Source of the DNA: Rhizobium sp. Q54
GTDB lineage: Bacteria > Pseudomonadota > Alphaproteobacteria > UBA2966 > CAIVPW01
DNA length: 64,000 bases
Direction: 5' to 3'
Assembly (NCBI GenBank): GCA_945889645.1
Contig: CAMDCA010000005.1
Span: forward strand, 7,728 to 71,727
The translations under genes and the position numbers were made by a program. Position 1 is the first letter of the stretch. Each line of letters starts with the position of its first letter. The notes under the pieces were generated by a model. It was not told the origin of the DNA and did no database searches. It worked only from the letters and a program-made list of their open reading frames with translations. Shown here one piece after another: positions 2,207 to 28,897 of the stretch.

Positions 2207-2424
2207 CGGTCCTCGAACATCTGCACGAACTTGCGCGGCGCGACTTCGCGCCAACGCCGGAGCAGCTCGTCGAGCGGCACTCCGAGGATCGCCAGCGTGT
2301 CGTCGTCCACTTTGAGGCGCGCGACAAGCTTGCCCCTCACTTTGACGGCGCGCGTGCCGTACGACGTCGCTTCTTCGATCCCCGGCAAATCGGCGACCGG
2401 CGCCAGCACGTCGTCGAAGGTCAT
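2203..2424 (-). CDS. Small conserved hypothetical protein (73 aa), tentatively MmcQ/YjbR-like
   Basis: Start ATG overlaps the stop of the upstream TPR-GT9 gene (ATGA). The PG.EE...G...KV.GK..A.L pattern resembles the YjbR N-terminal half. Weak call. Confidence 0.35.
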   Translation of the reverse strand: MTFDDVLAPVADLPGIEEATSYGTRAVKVRGKLVARLKVDDDTLAILGVPLDELLRRWREVAPRKFVQMFEDR

Positions 2425-3908
2425 CCGACAAAATCGAAGCGCTGGGCAACTGCAGCCCGCACTGCCTGCAGCGGCGAGGACCAATCGCCCATAGCCGGCT
2501 GCCTGTACAGCTGCGCCGTCGGATACCACGGGCTGTCGGAGCGGCCAAGCAACCAGCGCCACGTCGGATCGTAGCCAAGGACCAGCCATAGGGGCTTGCC
2601 GAGCGCGCCCGCGAGATGCGCCACCGACGTGTCCACCGAAACAACCAGGTCCATCTGCGCGGCAAGCGCCGCCGTATCGGCGAAATCGGCAAGCTGGCCG
2701 GTAACCACGCGCACGTCCGGACGCATGGTGAGCGCCTCTGCGTCCGCGGGGCGCACGTCCTTTTGCAGGCAGATGTAGTCGGCTCCGTCCGGCAGTGCCG
2801 TCGCGAACTTCGCGAAGGTCAACGAGCGCTGGTCATACTCCAATCCGCCGCTGCCGGACCACGCCACGCCGACGCGCGGGCGCACGCGGCGGCCGAGGGT
2901 CAGCTGCCAGCGCGCACTCGCCGCCGCCTCGGCAGCCAGGTACGGCACCGCGGCGGGAATGCTCTCTAGGGTCGTCTTGAACGCCAGCGGCAGGCTGAGA
3001 ATCGGGCAGTGCACGTCGAACGGCGGCAACGCCTCGCCGCGCGCGACGACGCGATCGACGCCTTTCAAGCAGCGTAGCAGCGGCGCCAACGACGGCTGCA
3101 CCTCGAGCACGACGCTGGCACCATGCTTCGCCACCAAGGGTGCGTAGCGGCAGAAGTGCAGAGTGTCGCCGAAGCCTTGCTCGGCGTGCAGCAGAATGGT
3201 CTTGCCCGCCAGCGGCGTGTCGCCGCGCCACAACGGTTGTGCAAACGTCCGCCACAACGGCGCGACCGCCGCCGTCTTCCACCGCCACTCGTACAGCGGC
3301 CAGGCCGTGGCAAAGTCGCCCGCCAGCAGGTTGGTGAACGCCTTGTTGAGATAGAAGTCGGCGCGATCAGGTTGCAGCGCGATGGCACGGTCGAACGCGG
3401 CAATCGCCTCATTGGTACGCAGCAAAGACGAAAGCGCGTTGCCGCGGCCGTAGTGGGCCTCGGCATGGTCGGGGCGCAGTGCCGCGACTCGCGTGTAGGC
3501 GTCCAACGCTTCCTGGGGTCGCTGCAGGTCGGCCAGCGCGACGCCGCGGTTGTAGTGCGCCTGCGCGTTGCCAGGATTGACGCGGAGCGACCCATCGTAG
3601 GCCGCCAGCGCGTCGTCGAGACGGCCCACCTCCAGTAGCGCGTTGCCGTAGTTCATCAGCGCGGTGGCATCCCCAGGCCTGGCGCGCACCGCCTTGCCAA
3701 GGATATCGGCGGCCTCCGGCGCCCGGCCGCGCTGGCCTTCGAGCACGCCGAGCAGATGCAGCGCATCGAAGTTGCGGGGATCGGCGCGCAGCACCTGACG
3801 ATAGGCGAGCGCCGCCTGGTCGAGCTGTCCGCGCTGGTGCAACGCCGACGCCTCTGCCAGCTCGCGCTGCTGCGGTTGCGCCGCGCCTGCGGGAGGCCGC
3901 GTCGTCAT
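2421..3908 (-). CDS. TPR-repeat protein fused to a GT9-like (heptosyltransferase-fold) glycosyltransferase domain
   Basis: The N-terminal roughly 200 aa show repeated TPR signatures (A..Y...L...P..A.A..NLG). The C-terminal half has the GT9 family layout: LLHAEQGFGDTLHF ... VSVDTSVAHLAGALGKPLWLVLGY. Confidence 0.7.
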   Translation of the reverse strand: MTTRPPAGAAQPQQRELAEASALHQRGQLDQAALAYRQVLRADPRNFDALHLLGVLEGQRGRAPEAADILGKAVRARPGDATALMNYGNALLEVGRLDDALAAYDGSLRVNPGNAQAHYNRGVALADLQRPQEALDAYTRVAALRPDHAEAHYGRGNALSSLLRTNEAIAAFDRAIALQPDRADFYLNKAFTNLLAGDFATAWPLYEWRWKTAAVAPLWRTFAQPLWRGDTPLAGKTILLHAEQGFGDTLHFCRYAPLVAKHGASVVLEVQPSLAPLLRCLKGVDRVVARGEALPPFDVHCPILSLPLAFKTTLESIPAAVPYLAAEAAASARWQLTLGRRVRPRVGVAWSGSGGLEYDQRSLTFAKFATALPDGADYICLQKDVRPADAEALTMRPDVRVVTGQLADFADTAALAAQMDLVVSVDTSVAHLAGALGKPLWLVLGYDPTWRWLLGRSDSPWYPTAQLYRQPAMGDWSSPLQAVRAAVAQRFDFVG

Positions 3909-9116: not shown

Positions 9117-9749
9117 ATGGAGTCGCCGGTGCCTGCGAACGTAGATGCGCTCCACCGCATGGCAGCGCAGTTGCGCGCCGCGGCCGGGAGCCCGCGCGCC
9201 GCAAACGGTTCTGCGTTGCCGGCGCTTGTCTTGGTAACGGATGAGTCGCGGCTGACCGACCCGGTGGCGGCGTCGCGCCGGTTGCCGGCCGGCGCTGCGG
9301 TGCTGCTGCGTCACTACGATCATCCAGAGCGTGCGGCGATTGCGCGTGCGCTGCGTGATGTCTGCCGCGCGCGTGACCTGGTGTTGTGGGTCGGTGGCGA
9401 CGTCGCCCTAGCCCGGTCGGTCGGGGCAAGCGGCGTGCATCTGCCCGAGCGGATGCTTGCCGGCTGGCAGCGTGGGTCGTGGACCGGAACGGTTACGGCC
9501 GCCGCGCACTCTGCTGCAGCGTTGCGGGCCGCTAAGTCCGCTGGCGCCGACGCAGCGATCTTGTCGCCGGTGTTCATCACTGCGAGTCATCGGGATGCCA
9601 CGCCACTGGGTGTCCCCGGCGCCGCGCGCCTGATCGCGGCGGCGGAATTGCCGGTCTACGTGCTGGGCGGCATCAGCACCGCGAATGCAGCGACCCTGGT
9701 TGGCTGCGGCGCCGCGGGCATCGCCGCCCTCGACGGCCTCGCGGAGTAA
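9117..9749 (+). CDS. Thiamine-phosphate synthase-like (ThiE/TenI family) protein
   Basis: TIM-barrel ThiE-like pattern (LVLVTD ... VHLPE ... ILSPVFIT.S ... YVLGGI). Start uncertain. Confidence 0.55.
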   Translation: MESPVPANVDALHRMAAQLRAAAGSPRAANGSALPALVLVTDESRLTDPVAASRRLPAGAAVLLRHYDHPERAAIARALRDVCRARDLVLWVGGDVALARSVGASGVHLPERMLAGWQRGSWTGTVTAAAHSAAALRAAKSAGADAAILSPVFITASHRDATPLGVPGAARLIAAAELPVYVLGGISTANAATLVGCGAAGIAALDGLAE

Positions 9750-9799
9750 CGCGGCCGCCAACACGGTCCACAAACATATTGGCCGCGGCAACGCGGCCC

Positions 9800-9837
9800 G
9801 AAAAAACATTGAGGGCGGACCTTTCGGTCCGCCCTCA
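9800..9837 (-). terminator. Intrinsic terminator downstream of the porin gene
   Basis: 11-bp perfect stem GAGGGCGGACC/GGUCCGCCCUC with a UUUC loop, followed on the minus strand by AAUGUUUUUUC. Confidence 0.5.
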
Positions 9838-9862
9838 AGCATCCCCCTAAAGCGGGACTATT

Positions 9863-11293
9863 TTAGAACGAGAACTTAGTCTGGACGTTGATGCCGTGGG
9901 CGGTACGCGTCGCTTGCGTGTCGGTGGCGTCAAGCCCGGTGTGGTGGGTGTAGCGGTAGTTCGTGTAGCCGACGCTGAACGCGACGCCCGGGCCGACGGT
10001 CCAATCGTAGACGGCGTCGATCGAACGAACCTTGGACTGGTGGTCCGGATCAACGTTGTTGTCTTTCCAATCCTGCTGGCGGAGGCCAAGGCGAAGCGTC
10101 CTGCCGGAGCCGAGGCCGGTGTAGTTCACACCGACGTCCCAGCGCACGGCCGTATCTTCGCCGGTGCCAGCGGCATTGGCGGCAACAGCGGTGACGGCCG
10201 GAGTGCCGACGTTGCCCGGGGTTGCGGCAACCGCGGCAACCGCGGCAACCGCCGCATCACCCAGCTGTTCCGTCGTCGCCTTCTCGTAGCCCGCGCCGAA
10301 CTCCCATACGCCCATCGTATAGGTCGCGCCAATGCCCCAGACCTTCACGTCTTCGTCCTGGAGAACCGACACTGCGTTGCGGAGGGCCTTGCGGTAGTGG
10401 CCGCCGAGGGTGAGGGCACCGATCTGATAGTCCGCGCCGAGACGCCAACGCGTGTTCGCGCTCACCATGGTCGCAGTGGAATCCTTGTTCTCCGCCGCCG
10501 ACGTGCCGTACGCCAGCGAGAAGCGCAGGCGGTTGCCGCCGACCGATCCGGCCCATGCACCTTGGATGTGCATGTCGTTGTTTGCTTCGCCGACATCGTC
10601 ATTCTGCGTCGTGCCGATGGTGTTTTCCAGCGCTAGATCCGGGGCATACGCTATCATCAGGCGGAACCCGTTCATCGCGGGTGCCTCATAGATGACGCGA
10701 TTGCGGCCGGCGTTGACCGAGACCGTATTCGTGAAGCTGGCGCGGTTGCTCCCGGCGACGGCAAGGGCGTCACCGGCATCGTCGTTCAGCGAGATGCCGG
10801 AGGCGGACGTGTAGGTGCGGGGGGCGCTGATTGCGTAGCCGCCCGGCTCACCGACGCCACCCAAGGTCACCTTGCCGAGGCGGCCGTCGAGGTACATGAA
10901 GTTGTCGTCGATGTAGTCGGCGCAGCTCGCGTTCGAGCGAACCGTGGAGCTGAGCGGAGCGACGAGCGAGCAGAACTTGTTGTTCTTGGGCTCGGTGCCA
11001 CCCGCCTCAAGTTCGATTTCCCAGCCGACCTTGACGCCATTGGACAGCGTCGCGGCGCCGCGGAATTCGAGCTCGGCATCAAATCCGAACGCGAGATTGC
11101 GCGGATTGTCAGTGCCCGTTTCAGTGTTCGTGCCCGGATAGGCCGTCTGATACCACGCGTTGAACGTGGTGAAGCCGCCCAGCGACAGATTGAAATTGGT
11201 CGCCGTCATCGCCGTACGGGCCTGGCCGAGCGCCGGACCGGCAAACATGCCGGCGGCGAGCAGTGCCGTGGTCCCCAAAAGTACTTTCTTCAT
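9863..11293 (-). CDS. Outer-membrane porin (alphaproteobacterial general porin family)
   Basis: Signal peptide MKKVLLGTTALLAAGMFAGPALGQ and beta-strand-rich Gly/Tyr/Thr composition. C-terminal residue is Phe (TKFSF). Strong SD (GAGGAGAC) upstream. Contains an Ala-rich insertion encoded by a 9-bp tandem repeat. Confidence 0.75.
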   Translation of the reverse strand: MKKVLLGTTALLAAGMFAGPALGQARTAMTATNFNLSLGGFTTFNAWYQTAYPGTNTETGTDNPRNLAFGFDAELEFRGAATLSNGVKVGWEIELEAGGTEPKNNKFCSLVAPLSSTVRSNASCADYIDDNFMYLDGRLGKVTLGGVGEPGGYAISAPRTYTSASGISLNDDAGDALAVAGSNRASFTNTVSVNAGRNRVIYEAPAMNGFRLMIAYAPDLALENTIGTTQNDDVGEANNDMHIQGAWAGSVGGNRLRFSLAYGTSAAENKDSTATMVSANTRWRLGADYQIGALTLGGHYRKALRNAVSVLQDEDVKVWGIGATYTMGVWEFGAGYEKATTEQLGDAAVAAVAAVAATPGNVGTPAVTAVAANAAGTGEDTAVRWDVGVNYTGLGSGRTLRLGLRQQDWKDNNVDPDHQSKVRSIDAVYDWTVGPGVAFSVGYTNYRYTHHTGLDATDTQATRTAHGINVQTKFSF

Positions 11294-18228: not shown

Positions 18229-18853
18229 CTTGGATCCGCAGGATCGCGGACGCGGGGTCCGTCCTGCTCGGCAGCACTTCGGAGGTCATTCTCCGCTCCT
18301 TGCCCAACGCGGTCAATCCCATCTGCGCGGATTGGCCGACGGGAAGCAGGTAGGTCGTCTCCGAATCCACCAAGTGCCCGGTCTGCCGCAGCACCTCGTC
18401 CGGCCGAGTCCAAGCTCGAGCGGTGAGGACATCGACAGACCCCCCGAGCGTTTCACGTGAAACATCCTGCACCCGTTTCGGATGAACCGTCACGCCGCCT
18501 AGACCAAGCACCCGAGCTGCCTCGTTCAAGAACGCGCCCTTTCGGACGTCGGATTCGATGAGGTGAACCCGAGGCGCACCCATGGCCGCGAGGATCAGAC
18601 CTGGAAACCCGGCACCGGAACCGACATCCACCCAAACCTTCGCGCCGATGGGTGCGAGCGGAAATAGCTGGGCGCTATCCAGGAAGTGGCGGCGCCAAAG
18701 ATTCCGAAGGGTGTTTGGACCAACAAGATTGATCGCGGCCTGCCACTTCCGCAGCAGCGCTTCGTAAGCCCTCAGACGCTCGACGACATCGGGACCAGCG
18801 CCCGTCGCCCCCGCAAATTCCACAGGAGTAAGGGGCCGAAGTTCGCCGCCCAT
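18188..18853 (-). CDS. rsmG: 16S rRNA (guanine527-N7)-methyltransferase
   Basis: SAM-binding motif VDVGSGAGFPG; GidB family; conserved position between mnmG and parA. Confidence 0.85.
   Translation of the reverse strand: MGGELRPLTPVEFAGATGAGPDVVERLRAYEALLRKWQAAINLVGPNTLRNLWRRHFLDSAQLFPLAPIGAKVWVDVGSGAGFPGLILAAMGAPRVHLIESDVRKGAFLNEAARVLGLGGVTVHPKRVQDVSRETLGGSVDVLTARAWTRPDEVLRQTGHLVDSETTYLLPVGQSAQMGLTALGKERRMTSEVLPSRTDPASAILRIQGVSRGTATDTSGP
18212..18227. promoter_or_regulatory. parS: parS site 1 (TGTTCCACGTGAAACA, 15/16 match to consensus)
   Basis: Matches TGTTTCACGTGAAACA with one mismatch. Overlaps the annotated parA start and the rsmG 3' end. Confidence 0.6.
18449..18464. promoter_or_regulatory. 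parS: parS site 2 (cGTTTCACGTGAAACA, 15/16 match to consensus)
   Basis: Palindromic near-consensus parS inside the rsmG coding region, about 235 bp from site 1. Confidence 0.6.
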
Positions 18854-20778
18854 CAGGCCGCCGTGCGCCCGCGCACGTATCCCAACAGACGCGCAAGGCC
18901 CGCCGGAGTCATCCCAGGAATGCGCGACGCCGCGCCGAGGCTCACCGGCCGGACCGCCGATAGCTTCGCCCGAACCTCGTTCGACAGGCCGGGGATCGCC
19001 TCGTACGAAAGGTCGAGCGGCAGCCGAAGGTTCTCGTCGCGCCCAAACGAGGCGATATCGCCCTCCTGGCGATCCAAGTACGACGCGTATCGGCCCTCAA
19101 TTCCGATCTGCTCCCAAACGGCCGCGGACAGCGCCCCCAACTCAGGCCAGACCGCCCGCAGCTGATCCGGACTCGCGAGACCTGTACCGAGGATCGCGAA
19201 CCCACTCCGCCGCTGGCCATCGTGGTTAACCTGGATCCCATGGGCAGCGGCCTGGTTCGGGGTCAGGGTACGCTCGACCAGCATCTGCCGGCCGGAGTCC
19301 ATCCGCGCCTGCTTCCTGCGGTGGTGCGCCAGCCGCTCTGAGCTGACGAGCCCCAACTCCGCACCGCGCTCTGTCAGCCGCTGATCGGCGTTATCCGCTC
19401 GGAGCGTCAGGCGGTATTCCGCCCGCGACGTGAACATGCGGTACGGCTCTGAGGTACCCCGCGTCACCAGGTCGTCGATCAGCACGCCGATGTAGGCTTC
19501 GGCCCGACCCACCTCGAATGCCGGCAACCCAATGGACTGCCGCCCAGCGTTCGCTCCGGCAACGATCCCTTGCGCGGCCGCCTCCTCGTACCCGGTGGTG
19601 CCGTTGATCTGCCCGGCCAGGAAAAACCCGGCAACGCGGCGCGTCTCTAGGGTCGGAGTCAGCTCGCGCGGATCGACATAGTCGTATTCGATGGCGTAGC
19701 CGGGCCGAATGACCCGGGCATGATCGAGCCCCGGGATCGAGTGAACGATCTCGTCCTGCACCTCCGCGGGCAGCGACGTCGAAATCCCGTTTGGATAGAC
19801 GGTGTCGTCGTCCAGCCCCTCGGGCTCCAGGAAGATCGTGTGGCTGGTCCGGTCGGCGAACCGAACCACCTTGTCCTCGATCGACGGGCAGTATCGCGGG
19901 CCCACACTCTCGATCTGGCCCGAATACATCGGCGACTGATGCAGATTGGCACGAATGATCGCGTGCGTGCGCTCGGTCGTCGCCGTCTGATGACAATGCA
20001 CTTGCCGCGTCGCAATCCGATCGGCCGTGAATGAAAACGGCTCCGGCGGCTCGTCGCCGGGCTGCGCCTGCAGTGCCGCGTAATCGATCGTCCGGCCGTC
20101 AAGTCTCGGCGGAGTCCCCGTCTTCAGGCGCCCAAGCGCGAATCCCAAACGACCGAGCGTACTGGATAGCCCGAGCGACGGCGCCTCCCCCACCCGACCG
20201 GCCGGCGTGGTCTGCGTGCCCAGATGGATCAGGCCGCGCAAGAACGTGCCCGTCGTCAGCACGACCGCACGCGCGGCGACCACTCCGCCGCCCTTTAGAA
20301 CGACGCCAGAGACGGTTGGCCGGCCGGCCCGAATAGCGACCGAAAGGTCGTCTACCTCGCCCTCGGCGATCGACAATCTGGGTGTTGTGGCAAGCGTCTC
20401 CTGCATCCACAACCGGTAGAGCCTCCGGTCTGCCTGGGCTCGCGGACCACGAACGGCCGGACCTTTGCTGCGGTTCAAAACGCGGAAATGAATCCCGGCG
20501 GCGTCCGCAGCCCGCGCCATGACTCCGTCCAGCGCGTCAATCTCCCGAACGAGATGACCTTTTCCCACTCCCCCGATCGCCGGGTTGCACGACATCGCAC
20601 CAATCGTGTCGAACCGATGCGTGACGAGGAGCGTTCGCGCACCAACCCGCGCCGAAGCAGCGGCGGCCTCACACCCTGCGTGGCCGCCGCCGATCACGAT
20701 AACGTCGAACGAACGGTCGACGATATCAGCGAGAGACGCCGTTCTATTTGCCAACGCAGAAGTCCCGGAATACGACAT
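18853..20778 (-). CDS. mnmG: tRNA uridine 5-carboxymethylaminomethyl modification enzyme
   Basis: FAD motif [16 protein letters not shown]; GidA signature throughout about 640 aa. Confidence 0.95.
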
Positions 20779-22066
20779 CGAGAAGGTCCTCAACGTCCAC
20801 TCGTCCTGTAATTCGCCCCAACGCGCGGGCGCCGAGGCGTAGGTCTTCGGCGCGCAATGTCACCTCCTCGGACCCCCGCAGGAACCGACGCAGCGATGCG
20901 ACGCACTCGGACAACGCCTGGCGATGTCGAACGCGCGTCAGTCCGGGTTCCTCGGCGAGACCCGCACGAACGTGCGCGGTCGCCGACAATCCCTGGACGA
21001 ACGACCGGATTCCCTCTCCAGTCCTTGCCGACACCGGCCAAACCCGGTCCGGCCCTACGCCTTCGACGCTGACAGGACGAACGTCCACCTTATTCACGAC
21101 GCGCACCGCCTCCGGACCCGCCCACGCCAGCGTTCGAGCGTCCACTGCGGGCCAAGCAACGGCGTCAAACACGCACACCACGATGTCGGCCTGGCGCGCC
21201 CGGGCATCGGCTCGGCGCACGCCTTCGGCTTCGATCTCGTCGTGAGAGTCGCGCAAGCCCGCCGTGTCGGCCAGCGTCACCGGTACGCCGTCAAGGTCGA
21301 GGCGCACCTCGACAATATCGCGGGTCGTCCCGGCCCGGGCCGACACGATCGCCGCCTCGCGCCCCGCCAAGGCATTCAACAGGCTCGACTTCCCGACATT
21401 CGGCGCCCCCACGATGGCGATCTGCAGCCCCGCGCGCAGACGCTCGCCCCGTCCGGACTCGGTCAGAGTCTCTTCCATTTCGGGTACCAGCCGATGGATA
21501 TGGACCGCGGCGGCCGCCAGGGTCTCGGCCGGCACCTCATCCTCGGCGAAGTCGATCGCCGCCTCGACATGGGCCAGCGCCCGCAGCACCTCGGTCCGCC
21601 ACCGTTCCAGCCGTTCCGCCAGCGCTCCTTCGAGCTGCCGCATGGCCTGCCGGCGCTGGCCCTCTGTTTCCGACTGCACCAGGTCGGCGAGCGCCTCCAC
21701 CTGGGTCAGGTCAAGCTTGCCGTTGTGGAATGCGCGCCGTGTGAAAGCGCCAGGTTCGGCCAGTTCCAGGCCGGGCACCGCGGCAAGCTCGTCCAGCACC
21801 GCGCGCACCACCGCCCGGCCGCCATGGACCTGGAATTCCGCCACGTCTTCTCCCGTCACGCTGGCCGGAGCGGGAAACCACAACAGCAGCGAGCGGTCGA
21901 GAAGGGTACCGTCGGCGCGCCGCAAGGCGGCAACGGTGGCCATGCGCGGCTCCGGCATCCGCCCGGCCAGGGCGCGCACGGCCCGGCCGGCCTCGGGGCC
22001 CGATACCCGCAGAACCGCGACACCGGCGGGACCCGGCGCGCTCGATAGCGCAAAGATCGTGGACAC
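20744..22066 (-). CDS. mnmE: tRNA modification GTPase
   Basis: G1 motif [10 protein letters not shown]; C-terminal CxGK motif (DFCVGK). Confidence 0.9.
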
Positions 22067-22075
22067 CGCCGGAGA

Positions 22076-22423
22076 TTAGCTCCGCGGCGGCTGCGGCGCA
22101 CCTTTGGGTGGCATCAGCAGGCGTTCGACGATCTCACCGCCTACGACGTGGCGCGCGAGGATCTCGTCCAGGTCGGCCTCGGTCCGCGCGGTGTACCAGA
22201 CCCCCTCGGGGTAGATGACCACGCTAGGCCCCAACTCGCAGCGGTCGAGGCAGCCGGCGTTGTTGATCCGCACGTCCTCCAGCCCCAGCTGCTTGGCGCC
22301 GTCCTTCATATAGCTCCGCAGCCGGACCGAGCCTTTGGCCGCGCAGCATCCGCGCGGATCGTCCGGCGGCCGTTGATTGGTGCAGACGAACACGTGCTTG
22401 CGGTAAAAGAGCGGCTCCGCCAC
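22076..22423 (-). CDS. Thioredoxin-like [2Fe-2S] ferredoxin
   Basis: Cys pattern C-x8-CC ... C-x3-C in a 115-aa protein (FVCTNQR...GCCAAKG...[10 protein letters not shown]). First gene of the mnmE-side operon. Confidence 0.65.
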
Positions 22424-22479
22424 GTCGGGCTCCCTCGGGTTCCGGCGCCATTCCTAGACTGGCCGCCTTAGTCTGGTTC

Positions 22480-24501
22480 ATGTCCAACGCGCTTGCCACG
22501 TCCACCAGCCCCTACCTGCGCCAGCACCGGGACAATCCCGTCGACTGGCAGCTGTGGGGCCCCGGCGTGTTCGCTCGCGCCGAGTCAGAGAACAAGCCGA
22601 TCCTGCTCAGCATCGGCTACGCCGCCTGTCACTGGTGTCACGTGATGGCGCACGAAAGCTTCGAAGACGACGCTACGGCGCGGCTGATGAACGAGAACTT
22701 CGTGTGCGTCAAGGTGGACCGCGAGGAGCGTCCCGATCTGGATATGGTCTACCAGTCGGCCTTGTCGGCGTTCGAGAGCCAGGGCGGCTGGCCATTGACC
22801 ATGTTCCTGGCCACCGACGGAGTGCCGTTCTGGGGCGGGACGTATTTCCCGCCGCAGCCGCGTTGGGGCAAGCCCAGCTTCGAGCAGGTTCTGCGCTCGA
22901 TCTCCCAGGCCTACCGCGACTCGCCCGCCAAAGTGCGGCAGAGCACCAAGGAGATGTCGCGCGCGCTCAAGGCCCTCGGCGAGCCCGCGACCCAAGGTGC
23001 TGGTAACCCCATCACCACGGCAAGCTTGGACGCCGCCGCCACCGCCGTGCTCGACGTCATGGACCCGATCAACGGTGGCCTGAAGGGCGCGCCGAAGTTC
23101 GCGCAACTCACCGCGCTCGAGGCACTATGGCGCGGCTACCTGCGCACCGGCGTCGGCGCCATGCGTCATGCCGTGACGCTTGGGCTCGATCGCATGTCCC
23201 AAGGCGGGCTCTACGATCACCTCGGCGGCGGCTACTCGCGCTACTGCGTTGACGAGGTCTGGCTCGTGCCGCATTTCGAAAAGATGCTGTACGACAACGC
23301 CTCATTCCTCGATCTGCTGACCACCGTGTGGCGCTCGACCAAAAGCGAGCTGTACGCCGCGCGCATACGCGAAACCGTCGCCTGGCTGCTGCGCGACATG
23401 CGCACGCCGGACAACGCGTTCGTCGCATCCTTCGACGCCGATTCCGAGGGCGAGGAGGGGGTCTACTACGTCTGGACGGAATCCGAGATCGACCAGCTCC
23501 TCGGCGCCGACGCAGCCGCGTTCAAGACCGTCTACGGCGTCACCGCCGCCGGCAATTGGGAAGGCCACGTCATCCTCAACCGCTTGGCGCGCCCGGCTTT
23601 CGGCACAGCGGAACAGGAAAAGGCGCTCGGCCGATCGCGCGCCAAGTTGTTGGCCGTGCGCGCCAAGCGCGTGCCGCCCGAACGCGACGACAAAGTGCTC
23701 GCCGACTGGAACGGACTAGCGATTGCCGCTCTGGTCAACGCCGCCGTGTCGTTTGCCGATTCCAACTGGCTCGCGGCCGCCGAGAAGGCGTTTGCCGCCG
23801 TCGCGCGCATCCACGGCGACGGCGACAAGCTGCACCACTCGTCCTTCGCCGGCACCGCCGGCGCGCAAGGGTTCCTCGACGACTACGCCAACATGACACG
23901 CGCTGCCCTCGCGCTCTACGAGGCGACCGGCACGGCGTCGTACCTCGCCAAGGCCCGCGCGTGGGCTGCGGTGATCGAGCGTGACTTCGCTTCGGCCGAC
24001 AAGGCCGGCTACTTCTACGCACCCAAGGACGCTGACAAGCAATTGCTGGTGCGCCCGCGCCACGCCCACGACGGCCCGCAGCCGTCCGGCAACGGCACGA
24101 CCGCCGCCGTCTTCGGCCGCCTAGCGGCCCACACCGGCGACACCGCCCCGCGCGAGCGCGCCGCTGCGATCATCAGCACCTTCGGCGGCCTCGCCGCAAA
24201 GCATCCGGTGTCGTTCGCCACCATCCTGAACAGCTTTGAATCGATCACCAGCGCGCAGCAAGTTGTTGTCGTCACGGGCAACGCCAACGACGCGATGATC
24301 GCCACCGCATGGGCCGCGCCACGTCCCGATCGCATCGTTCAAGTCGTCGCACCCGGTGCCAAGCTCCCGGCAAGTCACCCTGCCGCCGGGAAAGACGCAG
24401 TGAACGGCCGTCCGACCACATACGTATGCGTCGGCACGCGCTGCTCGTTACCCGTACAATCCGCCGCCGACCTCGCGGCCCTTTTGAAGGCGCCCCAATG
24501 A
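22480..24501 (+). CDS. Thioredoxin-domain protein, DUF255 / YyaL-like (N-acylglucosamine 2-epimerase-like fold)
   Basis: The N-terminus [19 protein letters not shown]...[15 protein letters not shown] is the DUF255 hallmark; a 6-hairpin glycosidase-like C-terminal region follows. Confidence 0.8.
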
Positions 24502-25019
24502 TCGCCTCGCTGATCATCGCCACGCCGCTCGGCGCCGTTCTGGTGCGCACCGAAGACGAGCAGATCTTCGGTCTCAGCTGGATCGCTGGCCGCAAACGCA
24601 TGCACGGTTCCGCCATGCGCGCCAACTCGCCCGGCCTCAAGGCGGCGCAGGGCTGGCTCGACGACTACTTCGCCGGCACATTCCGCCCCGTGGACTTCGC
24701 CGTGCGCGCCGAAGGCTCCGACTTCCAGCGCCGCGTGTGGCAGGCGATCGCCGAAATCCCGCGCGGCCAGACCGCCACCTACGGCGACATCGCCCGCGCC
24801 ATCCGCAGCGCCCCGCGCGCGGTCGGTGGCGCGTGCGGCGCCAATCCGATCGCCGTCGCCGTTCCCTGCCACCGCGTTCTGGCAGCTGGCGGGCGTATCG
24901 GCGGCTATTCCGGTGGCGCCGGGCTCGACACCAAGCGCGCCCTGTTGGGCCACGAAGGCATCACCGTTTCTCCCCGCGGCGGCCGTGCAGCCTCCTCGCA
25001 AGAAGGTTCCAACCCGTGA
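24498..25019 (+). CDS. ogt: Methylated-DNA--protein-cysteine methyltransferase
   Basis: Active site PCHRVL. ATG overlaps the upstream stop (ATGA). Confidence 0.8.
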
Positions 25020-27163
25020 GCAAAGCAGTTTCGTTCGAGACCAGCGCACAGCTCGCCGAAGCGCGCGCGCTCTACCAGGACGGCCGCCTGCAGGAGGCGG
25101 AGCAGCTTCTCACGCAGATTTCGCGCAACAACCCCAACAATCCCGAGACGCTGTACCTGCTCGGTGCCATCGCCTACCGCACGCGCATCTACGACAGTAG
25201 CGTGCGCATGATGCTGCGCGTCATCGCGCTGCAGCCGCGCCACCACGACGCCCAGCTGACCCTCGGCATGGCCTATCGCGCGCAGAAGAAGCCGCGCGAC
25301 GCCCTGGTGGCGCTGCGCAAGGCAGCGGTGATGAAGCCGAGTTCGCTCGACGGCCGCTTCCACCTGGCGCTGGCCGAAATCGAGGCGGGCGAACTGAAGG
25401 CCGCCGCCAAGAATCTCGAGCGCGCGGTGAAGATCGATCCGGAGTCCGCCCACGTGCGCAACACGTATGCCGGCGTGCTGTTCCAGCTCGGCGATCGCGA
25501 CGAGTCGCTGCGCCAGTTGCGCAAGGCCGCGGCGATCGCCTCTGATTCGGCCGACATGCAGCAGAACCTGGCGGTGGCGCTGCAGACCAACGGCCAGCAC
25601 GAGGAGGCGGTGGAACAATTCCGCCGCGTGCTCGCGCTGGTCCCCGATCACTTCGATGCCATGTACGGCATGGCGAATTCGCTCACCGCGCTGCGCCAGC
25701 TCGACGAGGCCTACACGTTCTTCGAGCGCCTTCTCAAAGAAGGCCCGAAGATGGTGCCGCCGCGCAGCAACTATGCGCTGGCGTTGCGCCACGGCAACCG
25801 TGCGGCCGACTCGGTCGCGCAGTTCCGCCAGGCGCTGGCCGATTCCCACGGCGAGCCGTTCGTCGCCGCCAACCTGGCCGAGAGTCTGGTCGCAGCAGGC
25901 GAAACGGACGAAGCCCTCAAGGTGCTACGCGCATCTGCGGAGAATCGTCCGACCGAAGGCATCATGCTGCAGCACGGTGATTTGCTCGCGCGCCTCGGCA
26001 AGTTCGGCGAAGCGACGGCGCAGTTCGAGCGCGTGCTCAAGCGCCAGCCGGACAACGCCATCGCACTGGTGAACCTCGCCGACATCGGTGGCAAGGACTT
26101 GGCCAAGGCGCACGAAGACAAGCTGGTCGCGGTCGCCGACAGCGATCGCCGCGCCGCCGGCGACATCATCCGCACCAACCTGGCGCTCGGGCGCCTGTAC
26201 GACGCGCGCGGCGATTACGCGCATGCGTTCGAACGCTTCGCCACCGGCAACAAAGTGCGTCACGCGCTGCAGCCGTTCGAAATGGCCGCCTTCCGCGGCT
26301 GGGTCTCGCGCCAGATTGCCGCGTTTTCCGCCGACCTAATGGCGACGACACGCGGCATGGGCAGCGAGTCCGACGTGCCGGTGTTCATCGTCGGCCTGCC
26401 GCGCACCGGCACCACGCTGGTCGAGCGCATCATCGACGCGCATCCGCAAGGGTTCGGCCAGGGCGAGTCTCAGGACCTGTACGTCCTGGCGCGCCGCCTG
26501 CCGGCGCTGATCGCCGCCAAGCCGCAGGAGCCGGGTTGGGGCGACGTCTATGCACTGGCGCGGCGTGACGCGCCCGCCGCCGCCGTTACGGTGGCGGAGT
26601 ATCCGGACTGCATGCGCGACCTCAGCGCCGAAGTCGCGCGCACCGTCGCCACCGACTTCGTGACACGGCGGCAGGCGCACGCGCCCAAGGCGCGCCGCAT
26701 CGCCGACAAGTCCGCCGCGCATTGGCAGTTCGTCGGTCTCGCCCGTGTTCTGTTGCCACGCGCCGGCGTCGTGCATGTCACGCGCGATCCGGCCGATACG
26801 TTGTTGTCGATCTTCAGCGCCAACACGCCGGGCGAGCATCCGTATCCGTCGGACCTCGGCGCGCTGGCGATCTACTGGCGCGAGTATCAGCGCCTGATGG
26901 CGCACTGGCCCACGCTGGCACCGATGACGGAGGTTTCCTACGAGGATCTGGTGCGCACGCCGGAGACGGCGGCGAAGTCCGTGCTGTCGGCGATCGGCCT
27001 GCCGTGGGATGCCGCCGCGCTGCGCTTTGCCGAATCGGCCCGCCCGGTAACGACCCAAAGCCGTGCGCAGATGCGTCAGCCGCTCACCGCGGCTCGCATC
27101 GGCCACGCCAAGCACTACGCCGATTTCTTGAAGCCGCTGGCGGAAGCTCTCGCCGGAAAGTAG
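25015..27163 (+). CDS. TPR-repeat protein fused to a C-terminal sulfotransferase domain
   Basis: GTG start overlapping the ogt stop (GTGA). The N-terminal 450 aa are TPR repeats. The C-terminus carries a PAPS 5'-PSB-like loop VFIVGLPRTGTTLVERI and a 3'-PB-like motif (RDPADTLLS). Confidence 0.7.
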
Positions 27164-27166
27164 GGC

Positions 27167-27337
27167 TAGCCGTTGGCGCGGCGCAGCAGGAACGCCTGGA
27201 TCGCCACGCCGGCGCAGGCGATGGTCACCACCAGCTTGAGGGCGCCGCCCTCCAGCGCGCCGGTCCCCACGACGAGCGCGATCACCGCCGCATAGGCGCA
27301 CAACGCGATGGCGTGCGCGTCGCGCTTCCGCACGGGC
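27167..27337 (-). CDS. Putative small membrane protein (about 56 aa), not in the ORF track
   Basis: Reverse-strand ORF VRKRDAHAIALCAYAAVIALVVGTGALEGGALKLVVTIACAGVAIQAFLLRRANG* with a GTG start 7 nt after a GGAGAC SD. Sits in the gap between the sulfotransferase gene and rho. Weak. Confidence 0.25.
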
Positions 27338-27368: not shown

Positions 27369-28622
27369 TTAGGCGTTCATCGAGTCAAAGAACTCGGCGT
27401 TGGTCTTGGTGCCCTTGAGCTTGGACAGCAGGAACTCCATGGAGTCGGTGACGCCCATCGGCATCAGGATGCGGCGCAGCACCCACATCTTCGACAGCGT
27501 GCCCTTGTCAACCAGGAGCTCTTCCTTGCGCGTGCCGGAGCGCGTGATGTCGATCGCCGGCCACGTGCGCTTGTCGGACAGCTTGCGGTCGAGAATGATT
27601 TCCGAGTTACCGGTGCCCTTGAACTCTTCGAAGATCACTTCGTCCATGCGGCTGCCGGTATCGATCAGCGCGGTGGCGATGATGGTCAGCGAGCCGCCGT
27701 TCTCGATGTTGCGCGCGGCGCCGAAGAAGCGCTTCGGCCGCTGCAATGCGTTGGCGTCAACACCGCCGGTCAGCACCTTGCCGGACGACGGCACCACGGT
27801 GTTGTAGGCGCGCGCCAAGCGGGTGATCGAGTCGAGCAGGATCACCACGTCACGGCCGTATTCGACCAGGCGCTTGGCCTTGGCGATCACCATCTCGGCG
27901 ACCTGCACATGGCGCGTCGCCGGTTCGTCGAACGTTGAGGACACGACCTCGCCGTTCACCGAGCGCTTCATGTCCGTGACTTCTTCGGGTCGCTCGTCGA
28001 TGAGCAACACGATCAGGTAGACGTCGGGGTGGTTGTGGCTGATCGAGTGCGCGATGGTCTGCAGCATCATCGTCTTGCCGGTGCGCGGCGGCGCGACAAT
28101 CAGTCCGCGCTGGCCCATGCCGAGCGGGGTGATGAGGTCGAGAACGCGCGCGCTCGGATCGCCACCCGCCTTGTCGATCTCCAGCTTGAAGCGCTTCTCG
28201 GGGTAGAGCGGCGTCAGGTTGTCGAAGTTGACCTTGTGCCGGACCGTCTCGGTGTCCTCGAAGTTGATGCTCTTGACCCGCAGCAGCGCGAAGTAGCGTT
28301 CGCCTTCCTTCGGCGCGCGAATCTCACCCTCGACCGTGTCGCCGGTGCGCAGCGCGAAGCGCCGCACCTGGCTTGGGGACACATAGATGTCGTCCGGGCC
28401 CGCCAGGTAGTTCGATTCCGGCGAGCGCAAGAACCCGAAGCCGTCCTGCAAGATCTCCAGCACACCGACGCCGGTGATCTCGACGTTGTCTTCGGCCAGC
28501 TGCTTAAGGATCGCGAACATCATGTCCTGCGTCCGCAGCGAGTTGGCGTTTTCGACCTTGTGCGCCTCGGCAAACGCGAGGAGCTCGGTCGGCGACTTGC
28601 GCTTCAATTCTTGGAGGTTCAT
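27369..28622 (-). CDS. rho: Transcription termination factor Rho
   Basis: Start [15 protein letters not shown]; Walker A/B and Q/R loops. A 275-nt leader lies upstream. Confidence 0.95.
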
Positions 28623-28897
28623 GGGCGTTCTGGGGTTCTGAGAAGCCTGGCGGCCGGGGGGTAGCGGGGGATTTGGCGGGTTCGGGCGAGGAGGCCTCGC
28701 CGCGACGGATTTCGAAACGGATGTGCCGTGGAGGCACCAGCGCAACGAAACTTGTGGGGAAGTGGGGGCGCCAAAGGTGCGCCCGAGGTGTTGACGGCTT
28801 CACCGTAATGCGAAGCCGCTGTCGAAGTCAAACCCGCGGAAGGCGCACAACGGCAGGATTGGTGCGTTGTCACAAGCGTGGCGCAGTCACACGTTCG

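Follow-up and report, generated by a model that had tools for sequence, protein, structure and literature searches.

Three plus-strand genes lie in tandem in the 64,000-nucleotide stretch of DNA that was analysed (the window): gene 1, encoding a DUF255/YyaL protein (22480-24501, 673 aa), gene 2, ogt (24498-25019, 173 aa), and gene 3, encoding a fusion of tetratricopeptide repeats (TPR) to a Sulfotransfer_3 domain (25016-27163, 715 aa, GTG start). All three are open reading frames at these positions, joined by the ATGA and GTGA overlaps that an earlier note on this DNA had described. At the DUF255/ogt junction (24498-24501, plus strand; ...CCCAATGATCGCC) the ogt ATG occupies 24498-24500 and the DUF255 TGA 24499-24501, and at the ogt/gene 3 junction (25016-25019, plus strand; ...AACCCGTGAGCAAA) the gene 3 GTG occupies 25016-25018 and the ogt TGA 25017-25019. 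In addition, a GAAGG Shine-Dalgarno-like element was found 7-9 nt 5' of both the ogt and the gene 3 starts. Ten homologues (55-97% identity) start at or near the GTG of gene 3, with conservation from residue 6, which supports this start codon.

A divergent intergenic region of 56 nt (22424-22479) separates the DUF255 unit from a minus-strand ferredoxin-mnmE-mnmG unit. This region is presumed to hold the promoter of the DUF255 unit; a scan of 22424-22479 for the sigma-70 consensus gave zero matches. The divergent unit is headed by a thioredoxin-like [2Fe-2S] ferredoxin gene (22076-22423, minus strand; NCBIfam NF041612, 7.5e-23, under the curated cut-off), which adjoins DUF255 in relatives too. 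Downstream, rho (27369-28745, minus strand) is convergent with gene 3 and forms the 3' boundary of a variable slot; Rho is 96% identical in loci of the trio-bearing clade described below and 75-89% in more distant loci, and the relatives carry the Pfam Rho families.

Both gene 1 and gene 2 encode typical members of known families, with nothing notable differing. Gene 1 belongs to the YyaL/SSP411/SPATA20 family (PF03190; PDB 7TKV, 3IRA) and is of the YyaL/SSP411 type, matching PF03190 (Thioredox_DsbH/DUF255) at 1e-70, also PF13899, and PDB 7TKV over its full length (E 1e-156). The thioredoxin-like domain is N-terminal, and its CHWC motif occupies aa 50-53 (nt 22627-22638). No Pfam family was matched at E<=0.01 over the C-terminal two-thirds, and by eye no signal peptide was evident. 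More than 8000 homologues were found, many of them over 50% identical, and no functional paper on the bacterial YyaL family was found. Gene 2 encodes a methylated-DNA-protein-cysteine methyltransferase, a DNA-alkylation repair protein of the Ogt family (TIGR00589; e.g. M. tuberculosis OGT, PDB 4BHB), with matches to PF01035 at 3e-32, to TIGR00589 at 94 bits (cut-off 46), and to 4BHB at 1e-25 with PCHRV aligned. With its PCHR active site, which begins at aa 123 (nt 24864), intact, it would act as a suicide O6-alkylguanine alkyltransferase.

Architecture and family of gene 3

Pfam analysis of gene 3 identified many TPR families at about aa 10-400 and PF13469 (Sulfotransfer_3; 7e-35, 122 bits) at aa 455-665. 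The full-length AlphaFold2 model had a pLDDT of 93.4 and a pTM of 0.87, the latter suggesting a fixed arrangement of the TPR and sulfotransferase parts. No signal peptide was evident by eye, and the product is for that reason presumed to be cytoplasmic. The TPR solenoid (aa 7-418; 25034-26269, plus strand) comprises 24 helices by DSSP of the model, which read as 11 regular repeats of about 34 residues plus a capping pair. Its best Foldseek match was the TPR superhelix of O-GlcNAc transferase (OGT), 1W3B (E 3.5e-14, target TM 0.81, 23% identity), followed by SPINDLY (SPY) and full-length OGT. Moreover, the ladder-position asparagines N149, N184 and N252 are invariant in the clade, and the N286 position is Asn in 6 of the 11 homologues. 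A loop of low confidence (aa 505-522; 26528-26581, plus strand; pLDDT <50) sits within an insertion that the alignment shows in the window protein and homologues P0001-P0005 and not in P0006-P0010.

The earlier note had regarded this fusion as unusual, a description that does not hold. The TPR and Sulfotransfer_3 domains were combined in all 120 full-length homologues among the matches listed, NCBI already uses the product name 'tetratricopeptide repeat-containing sulfotransferase family protein', and the architecture was tabulated in 2005, including Mesorhizobium loti Mlr4028 and Xanthomonas XAC3051 (PMC554113). With the sulfotransferase domain as query, E<=1e-10 gave 14,653 cluster representatives and E<=1e-3 gave 22,795; the best 150 matches were mostly long proteins (450-1300 aa) in which the domain is C-terminal. 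Gene 3 resembles this bacterial family in its N-terminal TPR array, its C-terminal Sulfotransfer_3/_1 domain and the family-wide motifs GxPRSGTT, G-x-G-E, DK, RRDPxDxxxS, YE.LV and TAS..QVRQP. It differs from the rest of the family in falling in a small divergent branch with a clade-specific disordered insertion. This branch comprises about ten 90%-identity clusters at 53-97% identity and one full-length 50%-identity representative; the next matches lie at 31%. Gene 3 is an ordinary though divergent member of a very large, catalogued bacterial family. No published experiment or function for any member was found in the literature searched.

Sulfotransferase domain and candidate substrates

By fold, the C-terminal domain of gene 3 (aa 455-715; 26378-27160, plus strand) is a PAPS-type sulfotransferase, and the assignment in the earlier note is borne out by both Pfam and structure comparison. 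Modelled alone, the domain had a pLDDT of 91.7. The top 13 Foldseek matches in the PDB were all tyrosylprotein sulfotransferases (TPSTs; E from 8e-9, TM 0.60-0.68), and TPSTs were matched at E 2e-21 to 6e-16 in a profile search of the PDB. The closest solved structures, by profile and by fold, are animal TPST1/TPST2 and tick TPST (PDB 5WRI/5WRJ, 3AP1-3, 8W5Z), although the structures align with only 17-21% identity. TPSTs lack TPRs and are type II membrane proteins of the Golgi lumen, whereas gene 3 carries about 420 aa of TPR and no evident signal or membrane segment.

Both cofactor-binding motifs that had been claimed for gene 3 were located. The 5'-phosphosulfate-binding loop GLPRTGTTL (aa 460-468; 26393-26419, plus strand) contains PRTGTT where TPSTs have PRSGTT, and R463 aligns with the Arg of that loop. 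R463 and G465 are invariant in 11 clade homologues; in the wider family R463 is invariant and G465 nearly so. The 3'-phosphate-binding motif HVTRDPADTLLS (aa 587-598; 26774-26809, plus strand), common to TPSTs and gene 3, includes R590, D594 and S598, with R590...S598 aligning with RD......S in TPSTs. Across the family R590 does not vary, and D594 and S598 show conservation of 90% or more. Between the two motifs, E484 in GQGESQDL (26456-26479, plus strand) aligns in the HMM alignment with the second Glu of TPST CGEET, the catalytic base. This position is Glu or Asp in 11 of 11 clade homologues and nearly invariant family-wide. In IADKS (26699-26713, plus strand), D564 and K565 are invariant, and K565, which is invariant family-wide, aligns with the Lys of TPST NKDP. 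In TPST2 the counterparts of R463, E484 and K565 are R78, E99 and K158; the alignment did not extend to TPST2 Ser285.

Several orthologues have relaxed phosphosulfate-binding loops (GLPRSGAS, GLPRAGLS, GLHRSGAV). Among the orthologues, the conserved Thr-Thr gives way to AS, GA, LS or AV, and the Pro to His; the S598 position is Ala or Gly in P0008-P0010. Together with the divergence of the clade, whose sulfotransferase domain shares only 32-42% identity with other family members, these changes could be read as the loss of catalysis in this lineage, the protein surviving as a TPR scaffold. We regard such a loss as highly improbable: the window protein retains the canonical GLPRTGTT loop, R590 and S598; R463, K565, R590 and D594 are all invariant within the clade, where position 484 is always acidic; the domain is predicted to fold with high confidence; and among homologues less than 90% identical its conservation equals that of the TPR part (55-68% identity vs 55-69% over the full length). 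Gene 3 probably encodes a cytoplasmic PAPS-dependent sulfotransferase.

The combination of a TPST-like domain with an OGT/SPY-like superhelix makes a protein or peptide substrate a reasonable inference by analogy. OGT and SPY have the same design, in which an N-terminal TPR superhelix precedes a C-terminal transferase that modifies protein hydroxyls; gene 3 differs in having a sulfotransferase fold rather than GT41, and its donor would be PAPS instead of a nucleotide sugar. Tyrosine is the leading guess for the hydroxyl sulfated. The earlier note had drawn a similar conclusion from the TPR module and likened gene 3 to RaxST; the first idea gains support from the two structural likenesses, and the second does not. 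RaxST is a single-domain enzyme encoded beside the precursor peptide gene raxX and the secretion/processing genes raxA/raxB. Gene 3 carries a TPR array, and its likeness to RaxST lies in the proposed activity, peptide tyrosine sulfation. RaxST of the bacterium Xanthomonas oryzae is described as working in the cytoplasm, where it uses PAPS to sulfate a tyrosine of the RaxX peptide (PMC4892823, PMC4216712). A RaxST-like system is not supported: no precursor-peptide gene, C39 peptidase or transporter was found at the trio locus.

An acceptor other than a protein, for instance a glycan, a glycolipid, or a polyketide-like or small-molecule hydroxyl, with the TPRs serving for oligomerisation or scaffolding, appears rather unlikely. 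Glycolipids or oligosaccharides are the acceptors known for most characterised bacterial sulfotransferases (NodH, mycobacterial Stf enzymes), and one member of the TPR-sulfotransferase family (L121) adjoins glycosyltransferase and methyltransferase genes. Furthermore, the next-best matches in sequence and structure are the sulfotransferase domains of CurM and olefin synthase (PDB 4GBM, 4GOX; profile E 9e-11 to 2e-10, Foldseek E 2e-5), which belong to the same Sulfotransfer_3-like branch. These lie within polyketide synthases and sulfate a beta-hydroxyacyl-ACP for decarboxylative elimination, not tyrosine, whereas gene 3 has no polyketide synthase context. The catalytic residues in common may not tell these kinds of substrate apart. 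However, TPSTs rank first both by profile (E 2e-21 vs 9e-11) and by structure (TM 0.60-0.68 vs 0.51-0.56), and the solenoid, with its conserved ladder asparagines, is most like the superhelices with which OGT and SPY bind peptides.

Distribution and probable assembly of the trio

The trio of DUF255, ogt and TPR-sulfotransferase genes was kept only in one narrow lineage, known from lake metagenomes (5 distinct loci). Within this clade the whole block is syntenic: parB-parA-gidB-mnmG-mnmE-fdx, then the trio, then rho-hemJ-hemH-hemE. In the sister loci L038 and L039 (DUF255 60% and 56% identical), DUF255 and ogt lie between fdx and rho with a 4-nt overlap and no sulfotransferase, and other alphaproteobacteria have DUF255 alone between mnmE and rho. 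No sulfotransferase domain was found in the 82 DUF255 loci outside the clade, and among the 17 loci that have both mnmE/rho context and sufficient downstream sequence, 6 carry ogt directly 3' of DUF255. Elsewhere, the third position is taken by a Zn-ADH/quinone-oxidoreductase-like gene (L040, L041, L049, L056) or a dienelactone hydrolase gene (L040, L052). In a simple neighbour-joining tree of DUF255, which carries no support values, the sulfotransferase-bearing loci are monophyletic and sister to the ogt-only loci L038 and L039, and most mnmE/rho loci lacking ogt fall on other branches. This nested distribution points to stepwise accretion rather than a pathway. The pathway of three activities implied by the earlier note is not supported, since co-conservation of the trio fails outside one narrow lineage and the sister lineages keep DUF255 and ogt without the sulfotransferase.

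The proposal of one operon with coupled translation fared better. Such 4-nt overlaps are unremarkable in themselves: by a rough gene list, they join 7 of the 26 same-strand neighbour pairs in the window (e.g. leuS/lptE, dnaJ/dapB, rsmI/yraN). The stop/start overlaps were nevertheless kept in 5 of 5 distinct orthologous trio loci, and no terminator-like sites were predicted between the trio genes, which fits one coupled transcription unit; on this basis we infer co-transcription. The ogt/gene 3 junction is GTGA in all 6 clade loci examined, and between DUF255 and ogt the clade loci and L038/L039 have ATGA, GTGA or TGATG, with a gap of 4-97 nt in more distant ogt-bearing loci. Selection for co-expression could explain why GTGA was retained while the clade proteins diverged to 54-69% identity.

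On balance, we think it probable that the trio is one co-transcribed, translationally coupled unit that was assembled stepwise, and not a three-enzyme pathway. The slot bounded by the divergent ferredoxin-mnmE-mnmG unit on one side and by convergent rho on the other would be permissive and would have been filled gene by gene. DUF255/YyaL, a widely conserved thioredoxin-like protein of solved structure (PDB 7TKV), would be the old resident; ogt would have come in immediately 3' of it within one subgroup of alphaproteobacteria, and the TPR-sulfotransferase behind ogt in the lake-metagenome lineage, the third position elsewhere having received a quinone-oxidoreductase-like gene, a dienelactone-hydrolase gene or nothing. 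The three proteins would most likely act each alone, with the 11-repeat OGT-like superhelix bringing in a protein or peptide and the TPST-like domain sulfating a hydroxyl group of the recruited substrate.

A true functional module, for instance a response to stress or electrophile damage with the sulfotransferase modifying, or co-regulated with, Ogt and/or DUF255 and with coupling setting the stoichiometry, seems distinctly unlikely. It would accommodate the persistence of the overlaps in 6 of 6 clade loci despite such divergence, as well as the older DUF255-ogt coupling, also kept in L038/L039, and the detoxification-type enzymes among the other slot occupants. The nested distribution argues against it, as do the 4-nt overlaps between unrelated genes elsewhere in the window and the unrelated gene contexts in which distant TPR-sulfotransferase family members were found. 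Moreover, synteny of the entire block accounts for co-occurrence in the clade by descent alone, and because the whole neighbourhood is syntenic there, inheritance and function of the trio are inseparable in these data. Stepwise filling also leaves room for a loose functional theme, as the slot occupants (quinone oxidoreductase, dienelactone hydrolase, Ogt and the thioredoxin-like protein) share a detoxification or stress flavour.

Organization and coding content of the three overlapping genes

Three open reading frames were found on the forward strand at the places proposed in the earlier note: a DUF255/YyaL gene (gene 1, 22480-24501), ogt (gene 2, 24498-25019) and a gene with a GTG start encoding a 715-aa fusion of tetratricopeptide repeats (TPRs) to a sulfotransferase (ST) domain (gene 3, 25016-27163). 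The junction sequences, CCCAATGATCGCC for DUF255/ogt and AACCCGTGAGCAAA for ogt/gene 3, showed that the upstream stop and the downstream start have 4 nt in common at both junctions. In addition, a GAAGG element is located 7-9 nt 5' of both the ogt start and the gene 3 start. The GTG start of gene 3 is supported by ten homologues (55-97% identical) whose starts coincide with it or lie close by, with conservation beginning at residue 6. The trio, its ATGA and GTGA overlaps and the motifs quoted in the earlier note were thus confirmed by the reading frames, the junctions, the Pfam and NCBIfam matches and the motif positions.

Such a stop/start overlap argues for co-transcription and probably for coupled translation, but not for a common function, since unrelated pairs in the window overlap likewise. 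On a rough gene list of the window, a 4-nt overlap joins 7 of the 26 pairs of adjacent genes on one strand, including the functionally unrelated leuS/lptE, dnaJ/dapB and rsmI/yraN. A consensus scan detected no terminator-like site between the three genes, the promoter and terminator scans being at background level and uninformative. A single operon of DUF255, ogt and the TPR-sulfotransferase, as had been proposed, is therefore plausible from the overlaps and the lack of a terminator-like site between the genes, although the overlaps are not special to this trio.

The gene 1 product matches Pfam PF03190 (Thioredox_DsbH/DUF255) at 1e-70 and has the YyaL/DUF255 architecture of a thioredoxin-like N-domain with a CxxC motif (CHWC, aa 50-53) and a conserved C-terminal domain. 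Residues 2-668 match the crystal structure PDB 7TKV (E 1e-156), deposited as 'Thioredox_DsbH domain-containing protein', for which no functional information was found in the literature. More than 8000 homologues were retrieved, many of them more than 50% identical. The literature on DUF255/YyaL yielded only papers on mammalian SSP411/SPATA20 and one co-evolution table, and no bacterial function. A table of negative phyletic couplings (PMC6822775) pairs PF03190 with PF02696 (YdiU/SelO), which hints that DUF255 and YdiU/SelO are perhaps functional alternatives. The gene 2 product matches PF01035 at 3e-32 and TIGR00589 over its cut-off. It has a PCHR motif and a DNA-binding domain, and its PCHRV aligns to M. 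tuberculosis OGT, the closest solved relative. Judged by its sequence, gene 2 is a standard Ogt (methylated-DNA-protein-cysteine methyltransferase).

A TPST-like sulfotransferase domain behind an OGT-like TPR superhelix

The C-terminal part of gene 3 (aa 455-665) matches PF13469 (Sulfotransfer_3) with 121.7 bits against a cut-off of 27 (7e-35), and a Sulfotransfer_1 match reaches 40.3 bits against a cut-off of 22. The 5'-phosphosulfate-binding (PSB) P-loop, P-K/R-x-G-T-T, is present in GLPRTGTTL (aa 460-468), aligned with PRSGTT of the tyrosylprotein sulfotransferases (TPSTs). The 3'-phosphate-binding (3'-PB) pattern, R-x7-S after a beta strand, is present as R590...S598 in HVTRDPADTLLS (aa 587-598), aligned with RDGRAxxHS of TPSTs. 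The AF2 model of the domain (pLDDT 91.7) has the alpha/beta fold of this class, as all 46 PDB matches found by Foldseek at E<=0.001 are sulfotransferase-fold proteins. Ranks 1-13 are all TPSTs, from tick (8W5Z) or human (TPST1, TPST2), with E from 8e-9 and TM 0.60-0.68, followed by CurM and olefin-synthase ST domains and then by cytosolic SULTs. Moreover, a profile of 19 family ST domains matched seven TPST sequences in PDB at 2e-21 to 6e-16, with the next family at 9e-11. TPSTs (EC 2.8.2.20) are the closest relatives of the domain both in sequence and in fold. The HMM match, the predicted structure and the motifs agree with the earlier assignment of the domain as a PAPS-dependent sulfotransferase.

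In the profile alignment, R463 corresponds to the Arg of PRSGTT, E484 to the second Glu of CGEET, K565 to the Lys of NKDP and R590...S598 to the RD......S 3'-phosphate motif of TPSTs. We take their counterparts in TPST2 to be R78, E99 (the catalytic base), K158 and R183/S191, respectively. S682 in TTQSRAQMRQP is presumably a plausible equivalent of TPST2 S285 by motif resemblance, the PDB alignment of the family-consensus C-terminal peptide having stopped before that position. Across the family, R463, D564, K565 and R590 do not vary, and E484 hardly does. In an alignment of the window protein with ten homologues (A1), which covers the narrow lineage carrying the trio (hereafter the clade), R463 and R590 are invariant, and position 484 is always Glu or Asp. 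The PSB loop, normally a near-invariant GxPRSGTT, varies in the clade at window aa 460-467 (GLPRSGAS, GLPRAGLS, GLHRSGAV), its core variants being PRSGAT, PRSGAS, PRSGGA, PRAGLS, HRSGAV and HRSGTT. The position of S598 is Ala or Gly in the homologues P0008-P0010. The window protein itself is canonical at the loop and at S598.

Many TPR Pfam families match roughly aa 10-400 of gene 3. In the full-length model (pLDDT 93.4, pTM 0.87), 24 helices at aa 7-418 can be assigned to 11 regular TPRs and a capping pair; two linker helices and the ST domain come after them. Disorder is confined to an insertion specific to the clade, at aa 505-522. The best structural match is the TPR superhelix of human O-GlcNAc transferase (OGT; 1W3B, E 3.5e-14, target TM 0.81), followed by SPINDLY (SPY) and full-length OGT. 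At a ladder position recurring every 34 residues, the clade keeps N149, N184 and N252 without exception, whereas 6 of the 11 sequences have Asn at the position of N286. In the wider family, Asn is also the commonest residue at this position (for example, 63/82 at position 184). The likeness to OGT and SPY, which extends to an N-terminal superhelix with an Asn ladder and a C-terminal transferase, is a functional analogy only. Their catalytic domain is a GT41 glycosyltransferase, whereas that of gene 3 is a sulfotransferase. Inspection by eye revealed no evident signal peptide or membrane segment in gene 3; the N-terminus has no hydrophobic segment and TPR helices run from the start. In contrast, TPST is a type II membrane protein of the secretory compartment.

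The TPST-like ST domain, the OGT-like TPR part and the lack of an evident signal or membrane segment make a cytoplasmic, PAPS-dependent, TPR-recruiting sulfotransferase the most likely mechanism. The OGT-like groove would recruit a protein or peptide, and the ST domain would then sulfate a hydroxyl group, for which tyrosine is the foremost candidate. CurM-type enzymes have the catalytic residues in common with gene 3 but act on acyl-ACP, so these residues may not identify the acceptor. The earlier note had suggested a protein or peptide substrate by analogy with RaxST. Its protein-substrate part, read as TPST-like, gains real but indirect support from the sequence comparison and the models, but a RaxST-like system is not supported at this locus. 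The precursor peptide and C39-peptidase/ABC exporter genes linked to RaxST-type RiPP systems are absent beside gene 3, whose neighbours in the window and at all clade loci are ogt upstream and convergent rho downstream.

A C39 peptidase gene downstream was observed only in a distant family member, the Methylohalobius crimeensis locus L120 (ATXB01000001, 3471-8176). Its 848-aa TPR-sulfotransferase gene has a 4-nt overlap with the downstream Peptidase_C39-domain gene, and three small secreted Ala/Ser/Thr/Gly-rich ORFs lie upstream. L120 may represent a cluster for peptide modification, with an arrangement that recalls RaxST/RaxB logic. The RiPP/RaxST-like reading that L120 prompted for the gene 3 locus was rejected because no such genes are present there.

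The TPR-sulfotransferase family

The fusion had been described as unusual, a view that could not be maintained. TPR families and Sulfotransfer_3 are combined in 120/120 of the full-length homologues listed, representatives number in the thousands, and a table of 2005 (PMC554113) already lists the TPR~Sulfotransfer_1 architecture, with Mesorhizobium loti Mlr4028 and Xanthomonas XAC3051 as its bearers. The NCBI product name for such proteins is 'tetratricopeptide repeat-containing sulfotransferase family protein'. The gene 3 locus is a member of a known, catalogued kind. With only the ST domain as query, an exhaustive search by HMMER returned 22,795 representatives of 50%-identity clusters at E<=1e-3, 14,653 at <=1e-10 and 4,245 at <=1e-30. 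Among the best 150 of the 22,795 matches, most proteins are 450-1300 aa long and carry the domain C-terminally, and many have two to four ST copies. The literature search on TPR-sulfotransferases found the 2005 domain-architecture catalogue only, and no functional or biochemical study.

Giant members were also observed, such as P0241 (2492 aa), P0242 (2819 aa) and many of 1150-1300 aa, with two to four or more ST copies and up to 8 matched stretches of the domain. Multi-sulfotransferase polyproteins thus appear common in the family. Distant members are found in unrelated contexts: one is encoded ahead of a C39 peptidase gene, another in a neighbourhood of oxygenase, methyltransferase and glycosyltransferase genes, and a third among housekeeping genes. 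This gene context gives no consistent substrate hint.

The part worth attention is the family, which comprises thousands of bacterial proteins with an OGT-like TPR superhelix and a TPST-like sulfotransferase. By analogy, we speculate, tentatively and with the odds against it, that the gene 3 product and its very large family may act as a bacterial 'OGT for sulfate', in which the Asn-ladder TPR would capture a protein and the TPST-like domain would transfer sulfate to tyrosine or to a different hydroxyl in the cytoplasm. If true, bacteria would have a post-translational modification inside the cell that has hardly been studied and is new to bacterial physiology, and in the clade the place behind DUF255 and ogt would tie gene 3 expression to a redox/alkylation stress unit. 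The gene 3 product, modelled with very high confidence (pLDDT 93, pTM 0.87), would be a reasonable representative for biochemistry, with no special handle on the substrate.

Distribution of the trio and history of the slot

The close homologues of gene 3 fall into about ten clusters (90% identity) that are 53-97% identical to it; beyond these, identity falls to 31%. A contig search with the orthologue alignment, using patterns from the TPR region, yielded 4 orthologous loci and mostly TPR-only matches. The order parB-parA-gidB-mnmG-mnmE-ferredoxin, DUF255-ogt-TPR-sulfotransferase, rho-hemJ-hemH-hemE is the same at every recovered clade locus (L001/L007, L004, L005, L006 and L008). L007, L005, L006 and L008 are from lake-water MAGs, and two of these four carry the label 'Rhizobium sp. 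Q54'. The ogt/ST junction is GTGA in 6/6 clade loci examined. Because the whole neighbourhood is syntenic, conservation of the trio in the clade is explained by descent.

Two sister loci, L038 and L039 (DUF255 60% and 56% identical, respectively), have DUF255-ogt with an ATGA overlap between the same ferredoxin and rho; rho directly follows ogt and a sulfotransferase gene is absent. A metagenome scan with a DUF255 profile provided 80 further loci, whose gene content was profiled by tblastn. In many contigs of alphaproteobacteria, DUF255 is flanked by mnmE and rho-hemJ. Among the loci with mnmE/rho context and enough downstream sequence, ogt stands behind DUF255 in only 6/17, and tblastn detected the ST domain in 0/82 of the other DUF255 loci. 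The three genes are therefore not co-conserved outside one lineage, and their co-occurrence is confined to one fully syntenic clade. In a neighbour-joining tree of DUF255, the ST-bearing loci form one clade, sister to the ogt-only L038/L039 and near other ogt-bearing loci, and most mnmE/rho loci without ogt are on other branches. The simplest history of the slot, from the mnmE-side ferredoxin to rho, would begin with DUF255, to which ogt and then the sulfotransferase were added. A pathway combining the three activities, as contemplated in the earlier note, is not supported by this nested tree and by a trio restricted to a single clade. A recent horizontal island was also considered and rejected, as GC is uniform (67-68%) across the region and the insertion is common to a clade with proteins 54-69% identical.

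Other genes occupy the slot elsewhere. A Zn-ADH/quinone-oxidoreductase-like gene is located behind DUF255 or ogt in L040, L041, L049 and L056, where the order DUF255-ogt-Zn-ADH/quinone-oxidoreductase-like recurs, and a dienelactone hydrolase gene takes the same place in L040 and L052. The slot seems to collect detoxification-type enzymes, which is the best remaining case for a loose stress theme. At the clade locus L005, two genes (9130-11025, reverse strand) separate the TPR-sulfotransferase from rho. One encodes an AAA_21/AAA_15 ATPase of 452 aa ('putative AbiEii toxin' / OLD-like type), and its partner encodes 178 aa without a Pfam match. This pair resembles a small insertion of the defence or toxin type, and shows that the slot still takes in genes. 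As a locus, the trio is of little importance; it illustrates that a stop/start overlap shows co-expression and not common function, and how a housekeeping unit closed off by a convergent essential gene gathers genes at its 3' end.

Several further features were observed in the window. A second TPR-transferase fusion of 495 aa is encoded at 2421-3908 on the reverse strand. Its TPRs cover about aa 15-200, and aa 408-440 match Glyco_transf_9 weakly. Upstream, at a distance of 2 nt, is a 566-aa gene identified by eye as purH. As with gene 3, a TPR-enzyme fusion here closes a housekeeping unit on its 3' side. A 55-aa ORF with a GTG start and two hydrophobic segments (MRKRDAHAIALCAYAAVIALVVGTGALEGGALKLVVTIACAGVAIQAFLLRRANG) follows rho on the reverse strand, starting after 35 nt (27166-27333). 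Pfam gave no match for it, and the gene-3/rho gaps of the clade loci L001 and L004 (24 and 79 nt, respectively) are too short for it. This ORF may encode a small membrane protein peculiar to the lineage, or it may be spurious. 

In relatives, parB-parA-gidB-mnmG-mnmE ... rho-hemJ-hemH-hemE is followed by divergent maf-aroE-coaE-dnaQ. This whole order is the origin-proximal one typical of alphaproteobacteria. Since the window (18853-22066, reverse strand, and about 28.9-33.2 kb) shows the mnmG-mnmE ... rho-hemJ-hemH part of it, a replication origin near 31-32 kb is possible. The 50-nt overlap between mnmG and mnmE in the present gene calls probably reflects an over-long start call.
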